A stretch of DNA of 64,000 bases, from assembly GCF_056712565.1 (NCBI RefSeq), contig NZ_CM160072.1, one strand, 5' to 3'. The notes beneath the pieces were generated by a model. It did not search any database. It was not told the origin of the DNA and saw nothing but the letters and a program-made list of their open reading frames with translations. Positions within the stretch are counted from its first letter, which is position 1, and the number at the start of each line of letters is the position of its first letter. The position numbers were made by a program, and so were the translations under genes. This document shows, piece by piece, positions 846 to 37,353 of this stretch.

Positions 846-3104
846 TTACTCTTCGCTATCACCGCTGCTGGCACGGCGAGGAGAGTCGATCTCAACACGA
901 TCGATACGCTGCAAACCGCGCATCAACGTACCGCGGCGTCCACGTTCGCCAGCGACTTTCTGTAGCTCTTCCGGACGCAGTTTAATTTTGCGTTTCCCAA
1001 CATGAATGGTCAGCGTGCTTTGCGGCGGCAGAACGTACAGTTGCGCCAGGCCATCCTCGCCACGCGCGGCTTCTGCCGATGGAATGTTGATAATCTTGTT
1101 GCCTTTGCCCTTCGACAGCTGCGGCAGATCGCTTACCGGGAACATCAACATACGGCCTGCCTGAGTGATTGCCAGCAGCATATCGGAAGCATCTTCAATC
1201 ACCACCGGCGGCATAACATGGGCATTTTCCGGTAAGGTGATCAAAGCCTTACCTGCACGGTTACGCGCCACCAGATCGTTAAAGGTGCAGACGAAACCGT
1301 AACCCGCATCGGAAGCCATCAGCAGTTTCTGATCGTCGCTTTCCATCAGCATATGGTCAACGGTCGCTCCAGGCGGCAACGTTAATTTGCCGGTGAGCGG
1401 CTCGCCCTGACCACGCGCCGACGGCAGCGTAATCGGGTCGATGGCATAGCTACGACCGGTGGAATCAACAAACACTACCGGTTGGTTGCTCTTACCTTTC
1501 ACCGCCGCTTTGAAGCTATCGCCCGCTTTATAATTCAGGCCCGGCGCGTCGATATCATGGCCTTTAGCGCTGCGTACCCAGCCCATCTGCGACAGCACAA
1601 TGGTGACAGGTTCAGACGGCAGCATGTCGTGCTCGCTCATCGCTTTCGCTTCTTCGCGTTCCTGCAACGGCGAACGACGTTCGTCACCGTAGGCTTGCGC
1701 GTCTGCCTGCAGTTCTTTCTTCAGCAGGTTATTCATTTTACGCTCGGAAGCCAAAATGCCCTGCAACTGGTCGCGCTCTTTTTCCAGCTCACTCTGCTCA
1801 CCGCGAATCTTCATCTCTTCCAGTTTGGCAAGATGACGCAGTTTCAGTTCGAGGATCGCTTCCGCCTGGGTTTCCGTAAGGCCAAACCGCGACATCAGCG
1901 CCGGTTTCGGTTCATCTTCATTACGAATGATCTCAATCACTTCGTCGATATTGAGAAACGCCACCAGCAAACCTTCGAGGATATGCAGGCGCTTGAGGAC
2001 TTTCTCCAGACGATAGTTCAGTCGGCGGCGCACGGTATCGCGGCGGAACACCAGCCATTCGGAGAGGATTTCCAGCAGGTTTTTCACCGCCGGACGACCA
2101 TCCAGACCGATCATATTGAGGTTAATGCGATAGCTCTTTTCCAGATCGGTGGTAGCGAAGAGGTGGTTCATCACCTGATCCATATCCACGCGGTTGGAGC
2201 GCGGCACAATCACCAGACGGGTCGGGTTCTCGTGGTCAGATTCATCGCGCAGATCGTCAACCATCGGCAGCTTTTTGTTGCGCATTTGCGCAGCAATTTG
2301 CTCCAGTACGCGCGCACCTGAAACCTGATGCGGCAATGCGCTGATAACCACCGCGCCATCTTCTTTCTTCCAAACCGCGCGCATACGCACTGAACCACGT
2401 CCGTTCTCGTAGATTTTACGAATCTCGGCGCGCGAAGTGATAATTTCCGCTTCAGTCGGATAATCCGGCCCCTGCACGATATCCAGCAGCTGATCGAGCG
2501 TGGTTTTCGGCTGGTCGATTAATGCGATTGCCGCCTGAGCCACTTCACGCAGGTTATGCGGTGGAATATCGGTCGCCATGCCGACGGCAATACCGGTGGT
2601 GCCGTTAAGCAAAATGTTTGGCAGACGGGCAGGTAGCATTTTCGGCTCCTGCAAAGTGCCGTCGAAGTTTGGCACCCAGTCAGCCGTCCCCTGCCCCAGC
2701 TCGCTCAATAGCAGCTCGGAATATTTCGACAACCGGGATTCGGTGTAACGCATTGCCGCGAACGATTTCGGATCGTCCGGCGCCCCCCAGTTCCCCTGAC
2801 CATCAACCAGCGGATAACGGTAAGAGAACGGCTGCGCCATCAGGACCATCGCTTCATAACAGGCACTATCGCCGTGCGGATGGTATTTACCCAGTACGTC
2901 ACCGACGGTACGGGCCGATTTTTTAAATTTGGCGCTGGCATTCAGGCCCAGTTCAGACATCGCATACACAATGCGCCGCTGAACGGGTTTCAGACCATCA
3001 CCAATAAACGGCAACGCACGGTCCATGATCACGTACATGGAGTAGTTTAAGTAGGCGTTTTCCGTAAATTCATGTAGCGCAAGGCGCTCTGCCATATCGC
3101 TCAT
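846..3104 (-). CDS. parC: DNA topoisomerase IV subunit A
   Basis: 752-aa ORF beginning [32 protein letters not shown]..., recognised ParC. Confidence 0.95.
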
Positions 3105-29154: not shown

Positions 29155-29826
29155 ATGGGTATTAAGGGAATGTGGAAAGATCTTCGCACATCACCAGTTG
29201 ACACACTGGTCAGATGGCAGGAGCAACGCTTGTTGTGGTTGTTAATGGCCGTTGCGATGGGCGCGTTAATTATCCTGGCGCACTCTTTCTTCCAGATCTA
29301 TCTCTACATGGCACCCTGTGAGCAATGTGTATACATTCGCTACGCCATGTTTGTGATGGTTATTGGAGGATTGGTTGCAGCGATCAACCCAAAGAACATC
29401 ATCCTAAAGCTAATTGGCTGCGTGATGGCATTTTACGGCAGCATTTTGGGACTGAAGTTTTCGCTCAAACTGAACGATATCCACCATGCAGTACATAATC
29501 CGGATCCCGATTCACTGTTTGGCGTACAGGGTTGCTCTACCGATCCCACTTTTCCCTTTAACCTGCCGCTGGCACAGTGGGCACCAAATTGGTTCAAGCC
29601 TACCGGGGATTGTGGCTATGACGCACCAATCGTTCCTGATGGCGTCACACTGAGCAGCACGCAACAGTGGTTTGTGGAAATGTATCAGCAATCTGAAGGC
29701 TGGTATCTGCTACCACCATGGCATTTTATGAATATGGCTCAGGCTTGTATGCTGGCTTTTGGTATGTGTCTGGTGCTGCTGGTCATTATGAGTGGCGCAT
29801 GGGCGCTTAAAATCATCAGAGGCTAA
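29155..29826 (+). CDS. dsbI: membrane disulfide oxidoreductase DsbI (DsbB paralogue)
   Basis: 223-aa membrane ORF with CEQC motif. Confidence 0.88.
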
Positions 29827-30802: not shown

Positions 30803-31576
30803 ATGTCAGTACCTCTCATTCTGACCATACTGGCGGGGGCAGCCACGTTTATTGGCGCGTTTCTCGGCGTTCTCGGGCAAAAACCCTCGAACCGCTTACT
30901 GGCGTTTTCGCTAGGATTTGCGGCGGGGATCATGTTGCTCATCTCATTAATGGAAATGCTTCCTGCCGCATTAGCCGCCGAAGGAATGTCGCCTGTGTTG
31001 GGTTATGGAATGTTTATCTTCGGTCTGCTTGGCTATTTTGGCCTGGACCGCATGTTGCCACATGCGCATCCGCAGGATTTAATGCAAAAATCGGTGCAGC
31101 CGTTGCCAAAATCGATCAAGCGCACAGCCATTCTGCTCACTCTCGGCATCAGTCTGCATAACTTCCCGGAAGGGATTGCCACCTTTGTCACGGCGAGCAG
31201 CAACCTGGAGCTGGGATTTGGCATCGCCCTGGCCGTAGCGTTGCACAATATTCCTGAAGGTCTGGCGGTTGCAGGCCCGGTTTACGCTGCAACAGGATCG
31301 AAACGTACCGCGATTCTGTGGGCGGGCATTTCCGGACTGGCTGAAATTCTCGGTGGCGTTCTGGCGTGGTTAATTCTTGGCAGCATGATTTCTCCGGTGG
31401 TCATGGCGGCAATCATGGCGGCGGTTGCAGGAATTATGGTGGCGCTCTCCGTTGATGAATTAATGCCGCTCGCCAAAGAGATTGACCCCAATAATAACCC
31501 CAGCTATGGCGTGCTATGTGGAATGTCAGTGATGGGATTCAGTTTAGTGCTGCTACAAACGGCGGGAATTGGTTAA
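30803..31576 (+). CDS. zupT: zinc transporter ZupT (ZIP family)
   Basis: ORF 30761-31576; start placed at [22 protein letters not shown] (257 aa). Confidence 0.92.
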
Positions 31577-31587
31577 AGACGATAATG

Positions 31588-31621
31588 ACAGATGTTGCCC
31601 ATTGCTAAAGGCAACATCTGT
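31588..31621. terminator. hairpin terminator downstream of zupT
   Basis: acagatgttgcc - cattgctaaag - ggcaacatctgt inverted repeat. Confidence 0.6.
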
Positions 31622-31637
31622 ATCGTTATTAAAGGTA

Positions 31638-31823
31638 TTATTGATGCTTTTCAAACACTTCTTTATCGGAGCGTTTATCTAATTTACTTCGGGCAGCTAA
31701 CAGCGCATCTCTGTCATGGCGAAAAGCTTTACAGTAACGTTTAAGATGAAGAAAATAGCCACCAGCCAGTAGAACAATTAATACAATCCAGTACCAGGCA
31801 ATAAACATCCTTTTCACCTTCAA
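31638..31823 (-). CDS. small single-TM membrane protein (61 aa), hypothetical
   Basis: ORF MKVKRMFIAWYWIVLIVLLAGGYFLHLKRY... with one hydrophobic helix and basic tail; flanked by terminator hairpin and AT-rich upstream region. Confidence 0.4.
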   Translation of the reverse strand: MKVKRMFIAWYWIVLIVLLAGGYFLHLKRYCKAFRHDRDALLAARSKLDKRSDKEVFEKHQ

Positions 31824-32378
31824 AATTTAACATTACTAAACATTTAGCGTTAAAATTTCACATATCCATCGTTGAATACATTCATATACTCGCATAATTC
31901 TGGATCAAGTATATGATTTCGATCATAGTAAGTGTTGTATTATATACCATATCTGGTCAAAAAAAGAACAACCAAGGCTATTAATATATATTATCCCCCG
32001 ATAAAACATTACTAATTAATAATAAAACTTAATAAGCATCGCTAGATATATATTATATCTTCACGATTATTAAGCCCCTACTCGTTATAATAAGTATACA
32101 CTCCCCCCTTTACAACATTAGGCGTAAACCTTTGTCAACAAACGGTTGTTTTTTCGCCGCAATTCATACAAAAAAATTATCACAAATAACGATAAACAAC
32201 AAACATCTAGATATATACACCTCAATATATAACGGGGAATTATATTTTAAGTTTTACTTAATCAGCATTTAATATAAATAACGAGTCAAATTATCTCAGG
32301 TTATGGTAATGTCCATAGCTGAATTAATATTAAATTCAAACCTGTATTTTCCTCATCCATTTATAAAGGATTATAGTC

Positions 32379-32942
32379 ATGTTAAAAAAAACATTGTTAT
32401 CTATGTTCGCAACCGCATTGTTATCAGGCGTTGCTTTTAACGCTCTTGCTGACGATGCTAATCAGGGTTCAGGTAAAATTACTTTTAAAGGTGAAGTTAT
32501 CGATGCACCTTGTTCTATTGCTCCTGGTGATGAAGATCAGACAATAAACCTCGGTGAAGTTGCTGATACCGTATTAAAAAGCGGTCAGAAATCACTGCCT
32601 GTAGATGTCACCATTCATTTGCAGGATTGTATTTTATCTGACGGCACTAACACTGTTGATAAAGTCAAAATCACCTTTAGTTCTGCCAGTGTTGACGCTA
32701 CCGACTCCAACCTGCTTAAAAACACTCTGGAAGGTAACATCGGCGGCGCAACTGATGTAGGCGTACGTCTGGTGAAATCAGACAACACCAACGTGACTCT
32801 TGGCACTCCAATCACTATCAACTTCCCGACGACTAACTCTTACCAGGAGTTGAACTTTAAAGCCCGTATGGAGTCTCTGGGACGCACCGCGACCCCGGGT
32901 AACGTGCAGGCACAGGCTAATTACGTACTCGACTACAAGTAA
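32379..32942 (+). CDS. fimbrial major subunit (chaperone-usher pilin)
   Basis: 187-aa ORF with signal peptide, pilin Cys pair and C-terminal beta-strand (…ANYVLDYK). Confidence 0.85.
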   Translation: MLKKTLLSMFATALLSGVAFNALADDANQGSGKITFKGEVIDAPCSIAPGDEDQTINLGEVADTVLKSGQKSLPVDVTIHLQDCILSDGTNTVDKVKITFSSASVDATDSNLLKNTLEGNIGGATDVGVRLVKSDNTNVTLGTPITINFPTTNSYQELNFKARMESLGRTATPGNVQAQANYVLDYK

Positions 32943-33028
32943 TCGGTAGTCAATACCTACACAACGCCAGGCGGTAAAGCCGATGAAATTTCATCGGCAA
33001 CTTTGGGCCTTTTTAGAAATGGATTTTT

Positions 33029-35551
33029 ATGAACAATAAAAACACGTTTTCCCGGGATAAGTTATCCCATGCAATTAAAAATGCCCTGTCTGGCGTTGTG
33101 TGTTCCCTACTCTTCGTTTTGCCAGTCCACGCCGTAGAATTCAACGTCGATATGATTGACGCAGAAGACCGTGAGAATATCGACATCTCTCGTTTTGAGA
33201 AAAAAGGCTATATCCCCCCTGGTAGATACCTCGTTCGTGTGCAAATAAATAAAAATATGTTGCCACAAACGTTAATACTGGAATGGGTAAAAGCCGATAA
33301 TGAAAGTGGTTCGTTACTCTGCTTAACCAAAGAAAATTTGACTAATTTCGGTCTTAATACGGAATTTATTGAATCATTGCAAAACATAGCTGGCAGCGAA
33401 TGTCTCGATTTAAGCCAACGTCAGGAGTTAACGACACGACTTGATAAAGCTACGATGATATTATCGCTAAGTGTTCCCCAGGCATGGTTAAAATACCAGG
33501 CAACAAACTGGACGCCACCAGAGTTTTGGGATACCGGTATCGCCGGGTTTATCCTTGATTACAACGTGTACGCCAGCCAGTATGCCCCACATCACGGAGA
33601 CAGCACCCAAAACGTCAGCTCCTATGGTACGTTAGGCTTTAACCTCGGCGCATGGCGCTTACGTAGCGATTACCAATATAATCAGAATTTTGCTGATGGA
33701 CGCTCGGTAAACCGCGACAGCGAATTTGCGCGAACTTATCTGTTTCGCCCTATCCCCTCCTGGTCGTCAAAATTCACTATGGGCCAGTACGACCTGAGCT
33801 CCAATCTTTACGATACCTTCCACTTTACTGGCGCATCGCTGGAAAGTGATGAAAGCATGCTGCCGCCAGATTTACAGGGTTATGCGCCACAAATTACCGG
33901 CATCGCGCAGACCAACGCGAAAGTAACTGTGGCACAAAATGGTCGTGTACTTTATCAAACCACTGTCGCGCCAGGCCCTTTTACTATTTCTGATTTGGGG
34001 CAATCGTTTCAGGGGCTGCTGGATGTCACAGTGGAAGAAGAAGATGGCCGCACCAGCACCTTCCAGGTTGGCTCCGCATCCATTCCCTATTTAACCCGTA
34101 AAGGGCAAGTGCGCTATAAAACGTCACTGGGAAAACCGACATCCGTCGGGCATAACGATATCAATAATCCCTTTTTCTGGACGGCGGAAGCCTCCTGGGG
34201 CTGGCTGAACAATGTGTCGTTGTATGGTGGTGGCATGTTCACCGCTGATGATTATCAGGCTATCACTACCGGTATTGGCTTTAACCTTAACCAATTCGGT
34301 TCGCTTTCTTTTGATGTCACTGGAGCAGACGCGTCTTTACAGCAACAAAATAGCGGCAATCTGCGTGGTTACAGCTATCGCTTCAACTATGCAAAGCATT
34401 TCGAATCGACAGGCAGTCAGATTACCTTCGCGGGTTATCGCTTCTCAGATAAAGATTACGTGTCGATGAGTGAGTACCTCAGCTCGCGTAATGGCGATGA
34501 GTCAATCGATAATGAAAAAGAGAGTTATGTCATTTCCTTGAACCAGTACTTTGAAACGCTGGAATTAAACTCTTATCTCAACGTTACACGCAATACTTAT
34601 TGGGACAGCGCCAGCAATACCAACTACTCCGTATCTGTAAGCAAAAACTTTGATATTGGCGATTTCAAAGGTATATCTGCATCGCTGGCAGTAAGTCGAA
34701 TCCGCTGGGATGACGACGAAGAGAATCAATATTACTTCTCTTTCTCTCTACCTTTACAACAAAACCGCAACATCTCCTACAGTATGCAGCGAACGGGAAG
34801 CAGTAATACTTCGCAGATGATTTCCTGGTACGATTCATCAGATCGCAACAATATCTGGAATATTTCAGCGTCGGCAACGGACGACAATATACGTGATGGC
34901 GAACCAACACTGCGCGGCAGCTACCAGCACTATTCGCCGTGGGGACGTCTGAACATTAATGGCAGTGTACAGCCGAATCAGTACAATTCTGTTACCGCAG
35001 GCTGGTACGGTTCACTTACCGCTACACGTCATGGTATCGCCCTTCACGATTATAGCTATGGCGATAACGCCCGCATGATGGTCGATACCGATGGCATCTC
35101 CGGCATTGAAATCAACTCTAACCGTACCGTTACCAACGGGCTGGGCATCGCCGTGATACCTTCGTTATCGAACTACACCACCTCCATGTTGCGGGTGAAC
35201 AATAACGATCTGCCAGAAGGTGTCGATGTCGAAAACTCGGTTATTCGCACCACGCTCACCCAGGGTGCCATCGGCTACGCAAAACTGAATGCCACCACCG
35301 GTTACCAAATCGTCGGCGTTATTCGTCAGGAAAATGGGCGCTTCCCTCCACTAGGTGTGAATGTCACGGATAAAGCGACAGGTAAAGATGTGGGCCTGGT
35401 CGCGGAAGACGGCTTCGTTTATCTCAGCGGTATTCAGGAAAATAGTACTCTGCATTTAACCTGGGGTGATAATACCTGTGAAGTCACGCCGCCAAACCAA
35501 AGTAACATTAGCGAAAGCGCAATAATTTTACCTTGTAAAACAGTCAAATAA
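33029..35551 (+). CDS. fimbrial outer-membrane usher
   Basis: 840-aa ORF with signal peptide, in usher position. Confidence 0.88.
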   Translation: MNNKNTFSRDKLSHAIKNALSGVVCSLLFVLPVHAVEFNVDMIDAEDRENIDISRFEKKGYIPPGRYLVRVQINKNMLPQTLILEWVKADNESGSLLCLTKENLTNFGLNTEFIESLQNIAGSECLDLSQRQELTTRLDKATMILSLSVPQAWLKYQATNWTPPEFWDTGIAGFILDYNVYASQYAPHHGDSTQNVSSYGTLGFNLGAWRLRSDYQYNQNFADGRSVNRDSEFARTYLFRPIPSWSSKFTMGQYDLSSNLYDTFHFTGASLESDESMLPPDLQGYAPQITGIAQTNAKVTVAQNGRVLYQTTVAPGPFTISDLGQSFQGLLDVTVEEEDGRTSTFQVGSASIPYLTRKGQVRYKTSLGKPTSVGHNDINNPFFWTAEASWGWLNNVSLYGGGMFTADDYQAITTGIGFNLNQFGSLSFDVTGADASLQQQNSGNLRGYSYRFNYAKHFESTGSQITFAGYRFSDKDYVSMSEYLSSRNGDESIDNEKESYVISLNQYFETLELNSYLNVTRNTYWDSASNTNYSVSVSKNFDIGDFKGISASLAVSRIRWDDDEENQYYFSFSLPLQQNRNISYSMQRTGSSNTSQMISWYDSSDRNNIWNISASATDDNIRDGEPTLRGSYQHYSPWGRLNINGSVQPNQYNSVTAGWYGSLTATRHGIALHDYSYGDNARMMVDTDGISGIEINSNRTVTNGLGIAVIPSLSNYTTSMLRVNNNDLPEGVDVENSVIRTTLTQGAIGYAKLNATTGYQIVGVIRQENGRFPPLGVNVTDKATGKDVGLVAEDGFVYLSGIQENSTLHLTWGDNTCEVTPPNQSNISESAIILPCKTVK

Positions 35552-35557
35552 TTCAGG

Positions 35558-36307
35558 ATGAATATAATGAAATCACCATTAATCACAACAGGAATGATTT
35601 GTTTACTGGGGATCTGCAACTTTGCCCAGGCGACTGTCTCTCCCGACAGAACACGCATCATTTTTAATGCTTCGAATAAAAGCGCAACGGTTCGCCTGAC
35701 CAACCAAAGTAAAATCGATCCCTATCTGGCTCAGTCGTGGATTGAAGATGCCAGCGGTAAAAAAACGCGTGATTACATCTCGACATTGCCGCCGATGGAA
35801 CGTATTGAGCCTGATGAACAGATACAAATTCGCCTGATGGCACTGGCCTCGTTAAACGACTTACCACAGGACCGAGAAACGTTGTTCTACTATAACGTGC
35901 GAGAAATTCCGCCGCGCGCCAAAGAACAGAATGTAATGCAAATCGCCATGCAAAGCCGCCTGAAGCTATTCTGGCGGCCAAAAGCGATTGAGTTAAAAGA
36001 GGGGGAGATGATTCCTCTGCAAAAAGTAACGATTACCCGCACCGCCGCCGGTCTGACCCTGAATAACCCGACGCCTTATCATATTACCGTCGGTTATATC
36101 GGCACTAATGGCAAGACACTGATGCCCGGTGCGGACAGTATTATGGTGGTACCATTTACTTCTGCAACTCAACACCTAAGCAGCCTGCCCTCTACCTTCC
36201 AGTTAGGCTTTGTGGCGGACTACGGCGGGCTGGAGATGTTTAAAGTCGAATGTAATTCCATCCAATCCCTCTGCCAAACCTCTCCTGCTAAGAAGGGGAA
36301 AATATGA
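35558..36307 (+). CDS. fimbrial periplasmic chaperone (PapD-like)
   Basis: 249-aa ORF with signal peptide; 4-bp overlap with adhesin gene. Confidence 0.85.
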   Translation: MNIMKSPLITTGMICLLGICNFAQATVSPDRTRIIFNASNKSATVRLTNQSKIDPYLAQSWIEDASGKKTRDYISTLPPMERIEPDEQIQIRLMALASLNDLPQDRETLFYYNVREIPPRAKEQNVMQIAMQSRLKLFWRPKAIELKEGEMIPLQKVTITRTAAGLTLNNPTPYHITVGYIGTNGKTLMPGADSIMVVPFTSATQHLSSLPSTFQLGFVADYGGLEMFKVECNSIQSLCQTSPAKKGKI

Positions 36308-37353
36308 TTACGCTTTTTCGTTTACTGGCGATTCTTTGCCTGTTTTTTAACGTTTCAGCTTTTGCTGTTGATTGCTATCAGGATGGGTACAGAGGAACAA
36401 CCCTCATAAATGGAGATTTACCAGCGTTCAAAATTCCAGAGAACGCGCAACCTGGGCAAAAAATTTGGGAGAGTGGAGATATTAATATCACGGTTTATTG
36501 TGACAATGCACCAGGATGGACAACAGACAATCCATCAGAAAATATCTATGCCTGGATCAAATTACCCCAAATAAATAGTGCCGACATGTTGAATAATCCA
36601 TATTTAACCTTTGGCGTGACTTATAATGGTGTAGATTATGAAGGGATAAATGAAAGAATTGATACTCATGCATGCCTGGATAAATATGAGCAATACTATA
36701 ATGGGTATTATTATGACCCTGTATGCAATGGCAGTACCCTTCAAAAAAATGTAACATTTAATGCCCATTTTCGCGTCTATGTAAAATTCAAAAGCCGCCC
36801 AGCAGGAGATCAGACGGTGAACTTTGGCATAGTCAACGTGTTACAATTCGATGGCGAAGGAGGGGCAAACATGTCCTCTAACGCGAAGAATTTACGCTAT
36901 GTGATTACGGGATTAGATAATATTTCATTCCTTGACTGTAGTGTCGACGTCCGGATTTTTCCAGAAAGCCAGATAGTTAATTTCGGGCAAATTGCTGCAA
37001 ACTCTATTGCTACTTATCGACCAAAAGCTGCATTTAGCGTATCTACTATAAAAGATGTTGCTGCCGATTGTACCGAGCAATTTGATGTTGCCACCAGCTT
37101 TTATACGACAGATACGTTACATGATGATACGCATCTGGAAATGGGTAATGGTTTGTTGATGCGTATTACTGATCAAAAAACACAAGAAGACATTAAGTTT
37201 AATCAGTACAAACGCTTCACCACATATATTCCAGGTCAGACTGGAGCGATGGTTACCCGTGATTACCAGGCTGAACTTTCACAAAAACCGGGGGAGACTC
37301 TCGTTTATGGGCCTTTCAAAAAAGATCTCATCGTAAAAATAAACTATAACTGA
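36304..37353 (+). CDS. fimbrial tip adhesin (two-domain: lectin + pilin domain)
   Basis: 349-aa ORF with signal peptide, Cys-rich N-terminal domain; last gene of operon. Confidence 0.75.
   Translation: MITLFRLLAILCLFFNVSAFAVDCYQDGYRGTTLINGDLPAFKIPENAQPGQKIWESGDINITVYCDNAPGWTTDNPSENIYAWIKLPQINSADMLNNPYLTFGVTYNGVDYEGINERIDTHACLDKYEQYYNGYYYDPVCNGSTLQKNVTFNAHFRVYVKFKSRPAGDQTVNFGIVNVLQFDGEGGANMSSNAKNLRYVITGLDNISFLDCSVDVRIFPESQIVNFGQIAANSIATYRPKAAFSVSTIKDVAADCTEQFDVATSFYTTDTLHDDTHLEMGNGLLMRITDQKTQEDIKFNQYKRFTTYIPGQTGAMVTRDYQAELSQKPGETLVYGPFKKDLIVKINYN

Follow-up and report, generated by a model that had tools for sequence, protein, structure and literature searches.

The analysed stretch of DNA (64,000 nucleotides, hereafter the window) is 100% identical to Escherichia coli ATCC 11775, the type strain. 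Between the zinc transporter gene zupT and a fimbrial operon, both the sequence and the mechanical list of open reading frames hold the minus-strand frame 31638..31823 (61 aa from a TTG start) just as it was quoted in the original prediction, where it was described as unannotated-looking. It turned out to be annotated: RefSeq carries the CDS WP_001296421.1 here (171 nt, 56 aa, 'hypothetical protein'), which starts at an internal ATG, and the exact protein was found on more than 1000 contigs under the UniRef name 'DUF4051 domain-containing protein'. The K-12 counterpart at the equivalent locus, likewise convergent with zupT, is a named and validated gene, yqiD (b4756, WP_000469266.1, 56 aa), whose product is YQID_ECOLI in UniRef/Swiss-Prot. 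The features of the locus are collected in Table 1.

Table 1. Features of the yqiD locus; positions are those of the window unless another locus is named.
Feature	Position	Strand	Remarks
dsbI and upstream block	window 29155-29826; L041 18156-21324		
zupT (zinc transporter), invariable convergent neighbour	30803..31576	+	annotated; tail-to-tail with yqiD in 38/38 loci
Bidirectional terminator hairpin shared by zupT and yqiD	core stem 31588-31621, extended stem 31573-31632	.	from folding and covariation
yqiD CDS (B2/E. fergusonii-type allele)	31638..31808	-	56 codons + stop: MFIAWYWIVLIVLLAGGYFLHLKRYCKAFRHDRDALLAARSKLDKRSDKEVFEKHQ
Charged C-terminal tail, codons 38-56	31641..31697	-	fast-evolving; dN 0.33-0.86; 42-56% nucleotide identity to K-12
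Juxtamembrane cytoplasmic motif, codons 21-37	31698..31748	-	HLKRYCKAFRHDRDALL; family core R-A-[FY]-R-[QH]-[DE]-R-[DE]-A; net charge +3
N-terminal TM helix, codons 2-20	31749..31805	-	FIAWYWIVLIVLLAGGYFL; Kyte-Doolittle mean 2.16, no charged residue; AlphaFold2 helix pLDDT ~84-87
Non-coding 5' extension wrongly taken into the 61-aa ORF	31809..31823	-	TTG 31821-31823, GTG 31815-31817, Shine-Dalgarno AAGGTG at 31815-31820
Conserved promoter/leader region	31809..31911	-	invariant TATAT box at ~-77; proximal block TTTTAACGCTAAATGTTTAGTAATGTTAAAT
16-bp palindrome, candidate transcription-factor operator	31912..31927	-	TATGATCGAAATCATA; half-sites ATGA-N6-TCAT; -119..-104 from the ATG
Fimbrial operon (fimbrial-like, usher, chaperone, pilus protein)	window ~32379-37350; L041 10629-15603		

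The surroundings of the frame were as had been claimed, with a zupT terminator hairpin just 3' of the stop codon and an AT-rich region 5' of the start (GC 25-30% from 31800 to 32400). The hairpin between the zupT stop (31576) and the stop of the frame (31638-31640) has a dG of -27 kcal/mol and z = -7.6, none of 200 shuffled sequences folded as well, and 7 taxa share a consensus stem of 12 pairs, of which 3 show compensatory changes. It is bidirectional and common to both genes. The consensus promoter/terminator scan missed this hairpin and gave no minus-strand promoter near yqiD. The spacer between zupT and yqiD is 61 nt in the window and 18-28 nt in some taxa.

The protein belongs to the YqiD family (formerly Pfam DUF4051) by full-length similarity, by sequence and by position. 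K-12-type cluster representatives (P0027, P0043) were retrieved at E = 4e-16 to 6e-15, an M-[FYL]-I-x-W TM helix is followed by the family core, and the gene lies directly downstream of zupT and convergent with it, as in all 38 homologous loci. Scanned against NCBIfam and a Pfam-A copy lacking the DUF4051 model (the family, which formerly covered both alleles, survives only as a UniRef/NCBI label), both alleles and Citrobacter homologues gave only sub-threshold matches to the TM helix (MerE, DUF2621, DUF4381, HYxxLL). Membership in MerE, DUF2621 or DUF4381 was rejected, since the scores of 12-20 bits against cut-offs of 23-80 (for MerE, PF05052/NF010310, 12-13.6 bits against 22.8 and 80) reflect a compositional match to a TM helix plus a basic stretch. 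A PDB profile search aimed at finding a YqiD-like chain among solved complexes returned nothing beyond chance matches to GapR/UPF0335 (E > 0.04). The Bacillus subtilis yqiD, an ispA homologue, is unrelated, and most of the literature under the name 'yqiD' concerns that gene or an apparently different protein.

The conserved and annotated start of the gene is the ATG at 31808, and the protein is thus 56 aa long and not 61 aa as originally stated; the additional MKVKR is an artefact of choosing the first in-frame TTG and is not conserved. The ATG is conserved together with the first 11 codons and an AAGG(G/T) box that lies 7-12 nt before it, and the AAGG(T/G)G Shine-Dalgarno sequence at 31815-31820 is correctly spaced for the ATG only. 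It is hardly credible that the protein is made as a 61-aa form from the TTG at 31823 or as a 59-aa form from the GTG at 31817. The frame is indeed open from the TTG in ATCC 11775, and the GTG is in frame in E. fergusonii too, but in K-12 and Citrobacter the TTG is absent or replaced (TTA/TAA) and a 1-nt indel breaks the upstream frame, the Shine-Dalgarno box falls inside the putative extension, and the ATG is the start used by PGAP, by the validated K-12 protein and in the alignments of all 38 homologues. A 61-aa database entry (P0003) was ruled out as the TTG form, having a different N-terminus. The gene is the known small-protein gene yqiD in a divergent allele, neither new nor encoding 61 aa.

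The single clean TM helix that had been predicted was confirmed: the best 19-residue Kyte-Doolittle window of the protein is FIAWYWIVLIVLLAGGYFL, the only strongly hydrophobic segment, and its beginning, MFIAWYWIVLI, is invariant in Escherichia and Citrobacter. AlphaFold2, run with a 27-sequence alignment, modelled residues 2-55 as a single continuous helix, with moderate confidence (mean pLDDT 71, ~85 in the TM part and 55-69 in the tail, pTM 0.33). Residues 2-20 are predicted to cross the inner membrane with virtually nothing exposed in the periplasm; since no residues precede the helix and a net charge of +3 follows right after it, the positive-inside rule predicts the N-out/C-in orientation with the C-terminal 36 residues in the cytoplasm. 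These 36 residues contain 11 K/R and 6 D/E (net +5). Thus the 'highly basic cytoplasmic tail' of the original prediction is indeed basic here and is predicted to be cytoplasmic, but it characterizes the window allele only: the K-12 tail has a net charge of +2, so that the extra charge is allele-specific, and the conserved feature is the juxtamembrane motif.

The family has a narrow distribution. A word-indexed search of 5.8 billion proteins gave no homologues outside Escherichia and Citrobacter, and a profile search of 1.84 billion representatives yielded only 21 clusters. When 100,044 species representatives were scanned, 30 yqiD loci were recovered (Escherichia spp., many Citrobacter, Salmonella arizonae/diarizonae, Intestinirhabdus, Enterobacter sp. 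kpr-6, Kosakonia and Phytobacter), each with an intact ORF of 56-70 aa tail-to-tail with zupT. Together with eight loci fetched by exact protein these made up 38 loci from 7 genera; the intact frame and its arrangement were retained in all of them, and the protein length in the family ranged from 56 to 74 aa.

The coding sequence is under strong constraint. Comparison of the window and K-12 alleles by the Nei-Gojobori method gave a saturated dS of 2.3, a dN of 0.27 and an omega of 0.12. For codons 1-37 omega was 0.06 in this pair and 0.03-0.20 across pairs, and for the tail it was 0.18-0.64 where calculable. Among 27 family members, down to 25% identity, W5, A28 and R30 never vary and R24, R33 and A35 reach 90% conservation or more, while His21 and Cys26 are not kept in the distant members (P0093-P0098). 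Judged from these substitution patterns, purifying selection falls on the TM helix and the juxtamembrane KRYC(K/R)AFR(Q/H)DRDAL, which we take as the functional core, and the tail is fast-evolving. The frame conservation in related genomes and the codon-substitution analysis, both proposed as checks of the original prediction, thus agreed with a real small protein gene, and it is this conservation, not the length of the ORF, that sets it apart from chance. That it is a chance ORF in the zupT 3'/intergenic region, untranslated in ATCC 11775, has only its small size in favour and is effectively refuted by an omega of 0.03-0.2 over codons 1-37 at saturated dS, the frame intact in all loci, the conserved Shine-Dalgarno sequence and ATG, and the translation of the K-12 homologue.

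Ribosome profiling or epitope tagging had also been suggested as a check, and for the K-12 allele both are positive in the literature: chromosomally SPA-tagged YqiD was detected by immunoblot, and it was positive in a tetracycline ribosome-profiling screen as well (VanOrsdel et al. 2018, PMC6001520). Expression of yqiD varies among E. coli isolates with cis non-coding variants, on which a promoter model and a GFP reporter agree (bioRxiv 10.1101/2025.06.10.658842). In enteroaggregative E. coli, Orf3334 ('DUF4051 family') was one of only three tested genes found by qRT-PCR to be up in the aar mutant (Santiago et al. 2017, PMC5570504). In EAEC 042 the identical protein is encoded in the same zupT-ORF-fimbrial-ribB arrangement, and this copy is probably the transcribed, Aar-responsive Orf3334, a match made through the family label and the locus and not through an accession.

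The gene occurs in E. coli as two sharply separated alleles. Megablast with the 171-nt CDS against 5,426 complete E. coli genomes (at least 95% identity to the window allele) assigned the window allele to 993 and the K-12 allele to 4,432 genomes, which sum to 5,425 of the 5,426 with no intermediates. In all 993 the product is annotated as 'hypothetical protein' and PGAP applies the name 'protein YqiD' to the K-12-type allele alone, because the window allele is too divergent for identity-based naming. In these genomes, among them the type strain, ST131 and EAEC 042, the gene is unlinked to the validated yqiD; pangenome tools will count yqiD as two separate 'genes', and studies of regulons (e.g. 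of Aar/H-NS in EAEC) or expression-GWAS will miss that the gene they deal with is yqiD.

The K-12 protein shares with that of the window its length, the identical first 11 residues, the TM helix and HLKRYC(K/R)AFR(Q/H)DRDALL, and its gene shares the convergent position with zupT, the upstream palindrome and the promoter blocks; they differ in that the amino acid identity is 66% over 56 aa and the nucleotide identity 67% (p = 0.33) with saturated synonymous sites, the window tail has no sequence relationship to the K-12 tail and is more basic, and the upstream neighbour is the fimbrial operon in the window and ribB in K-12. In contrast, p is 0.039 (3.9%) for the adjacent zupT, and the ZupT protein is identical in both (dN = 0). 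The dimorphism was seen at window positions 31577-31930 against positions 2678-3030 of the K-12 locus (L002). Along the B2-vs-K-12 alignment, identity was ~0.98 in zupT and dropped abruptly at the zupT stop; within yqiD the tail reached 0.42-0.56 and codons 1-37 reached 0.76-0.78, and the value climbed to 0.86 over the 50 nt just upstream of the start codon. The locus thus presents a sharp, apparently recombination-driven allelic dimorphism beside a highly conserved transporter gene.

The K-12-type allele tracks the Escherichia tree (p = 0.054 to E. whittamii, 0.089 to E. albertii), whereas the window allele is equally distant from K-12 (0.33) and from Citrobacter or Salmonella (0.31-0.39). 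Its closest relative is the allele of E. fergusonii (P0015, locus L009, the species being judged by the ZupT, RibB and YgiD proteins), with 80% amino acid identity and a nucleotide p of 0.20 (0.126 in codons 1-37); the two have in common an LL(A/V)GGYFLHLKRYCKAFR signature and an AxRSKL tail start. Since it is still 20% divergent, the E. fergusonii allele was not the direct donor. The window allele is xenolog-like, and the simplest reading would be an old replacement at the border of a rearranging region, through recombination with its anchor in zupT.

In E. fergusonii itself zupT (L009 3234-4007) differs from E. coli zupT by p = 0.21 (0.51 at third positions) and is as distant as Citrobacter zupT. 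This is far above the expectation for sister species, and the whole zupT-yqiD segment may therefore be foreign or ancient there. A natural recombinant was also encountered: P0017 joins a window-type N-terminal half (LLAGGYFL...KAFRH) to a K-12-type tail (EARNKYLNSTREETAEKVE), and therefore a crossover has occurred inside the 171-nt gene.

The flank of yqiD away from zupT is variable and consists of ribB, assT-dsbL-dsbI or the fimbrial operon. In B2 and EAEC strains, as in ATCC 11775, ST131 and EAEC 042, the four-gene chaperone-usher fimbrial operon separates yqiD from ribB; in K-12 ribB-ubiK stands directly beside yqiD and homologous ygiL-type fimbrial genes lie beyond ubiK. Since the fimbrial/ribB order differs between strains, yqiD is situated at a rearrangement junction. 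The E. fergusonii locus retains ribB next to yqiD.

The palindrome upstream of yqiD has the form TATGATC(A/G)AAATCATA. Its core was identical in the first eight loci, and it was found at -115 to -118 in 26 of 30 further loci, Escherichia, Citrobacter, Salmonella and Intestinirhabdus sharing the fixed distance; Enterobacter kpr-6 retains ATGA-N6-TCAT with a different, GC-rich centre. The single match in 64 kb, where 0.2 is expected, is a copy number that is not significant in itself, and the signal comes from the invariance of the element where synonymous sites are saturated. Operators of CRP and FNR have an inverted TGA-N6-TCA core in which the discriminating base is G for CRP and T for FNR. 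The palindrome has the spacing and the TGA/TCA cores of this class, but its discriminating base is A in both half-sites, invariant across genera. A literal literature search for the palindrome sequence gave 0 matches.

The promoter/leader region is conserved across genera as well, its first 50 nt being more similar to K-12 than codons 1-37 are. The proximal block TTTTAACG...TGTTAAAT extends to the Shine-Dalgarno sequence and can be read as TTAACG-N18-TGnTAAATT, a putative promoter. An RNA structure in the conserved leader found no support, the consensus reaching only -1.4 kcal/mol with mostly invariant pairs, and the Rfam scan of 31400-32500 gave nothing relevant. Expression of yqiD is probably controlled via the candidate ATGA-N6-TCAT operator and the conserved AT-rich promoter region. 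On the plus strand at 31827-31856, opposite to yqiD and inside the conserved proximal block, lies the region's best sigma-70-like match (TTAACA-18-TAAAAT, 10/12), aimed at the fimbrial operon ~520 nt away; it may represent a divergent promoter, an antisense one, or chance in AT-rich DNA, the scan total being no higher than in shuffled sequences.

Our literature search found no functional study of E. coli YqiD. AcrZ, MgtS, KdpF, CydX and PmrR are bitopic bacterial small-protein regulators of membrane proteins. Like YqiD they are under 60 aa long and taxonomically restricted, they have one TM helix and a charged stretch on the cytoplasmic side, and the selected part is the TM helix with the juxtamembrane region; they differ from YqiD in showing no sequence similarity to it, so that the likeness is one of mechanism drawn from general knowledge, not of membership. 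By this analogy, the best inference is that YqiD is a bitopic accessory or regulatory subunit of a larger inner-membrane protein. Its TM helix would dock laterally onto the partner and the conserved charged juxtamembrane turn would contact the partner's cytoplasmic face, whereby activity or stability would be modulated; docking through these two parts is suggested because selection falls on both of them and not on the tail. We assign a probability of about 0.9 to the explanation as a whole, that the gene is yqiD in its minority B2/E. fergusonii-type allele, with an accessory-subunit mechanism proposed by analogy. YqiD is in these terms a core small membrane protein, and the search for its function is narrowed to the TM helix with residues 21-37 and the upstream palindrome. 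What points beyond the known gene is the allele dimorphism, the naming gap and an invariant operator-like palindrome.

As the partner of YqiD, ZupT is a candidate by its position alone. Small proteins acting on transporters are exemplified by MgtS, MntS, KdpF and AcrZ, and the adjacent importer of zinc and other divalent cations could have a dedicated modulator in YqiD. The tail-to-tail arrangement with a common terminator in 38/38 loci of 7 genera, with the other flank variable, agrees with such a role, as do His21 and Cys26 (plus Cys20 in Citrobacter and Salmonella) at the membrane-cytoplasm interface. However, the loss of His21 and Cys26 in the distant members weakens the idea of metal ligands, the two genes are convergent and not co-transcribed, and E. 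coli has exchanged its yqiD allele beside an unchanged ZupT, giving no sign of co-evolution. Moreover, most zupT-bearing genera gave no yqiD match (30 of the 100,044 species representatives did), and the adjacency may be mere inheritance, since a spacer of 61 nt offers little space for rearrangements. Altogether we consider a dedicated ZupT modulator unlikely.

A wider version is that yqiD and its ~120-bp control region form a self-contained cassette, retained next to zupT because YqiD tunes ZupT-dependent metal uptake, and switched by an uncharacterised CRP/FNR-like regulator at ATGA-N6-TCAT, for which the orphan paralogue YeiL would be the candidate. The two ancient allele classes would then be functionally distinct and maintained by selection, the B2/EAEC type having arrived via zupT-anchored recombination. 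This is speculative and we would not expect it to hold; if it were true, the E. coli allele classes, which differ mainly in the cytoplasmic tail, would be distinct functional variants.

Some traits of yqiD also recall a type I toxin-like membrane peptide (Hok/Ldr/Ibs-style) silenced by the conserved upstream region or by an antisense RNA: the protein is small with a single hydrophobic helix, the non-coding upstream region is conserved and carries the promoter-like match on the opposite strand, and an ibs toxin is present elsewhere in the same neighbourhood. Such a role is very improbable, since the tagged K-12 protein is readily detected in ordinary LB culture, 5,425/5,426 genomes carry the gene as a single-copy core gene, the region has neither an Rfam antitoxin or sRNA nor a stable conserved leader structure, and its conserved cytoplasmic motif sets the protein apart from pore-forming toxins.

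A further rearrangement was seen near the locus. The assT-dsbL-dsbI genes (an aryl-sulfate sulfotransferase with its dedicated Dsb pair) are inserted between ygiC and ygiD in the window and in EAEC 042 and are missing in K-12, while in C. rodentium and C. amalonaticus they lie on the opposite side, between yqiD and ribB.
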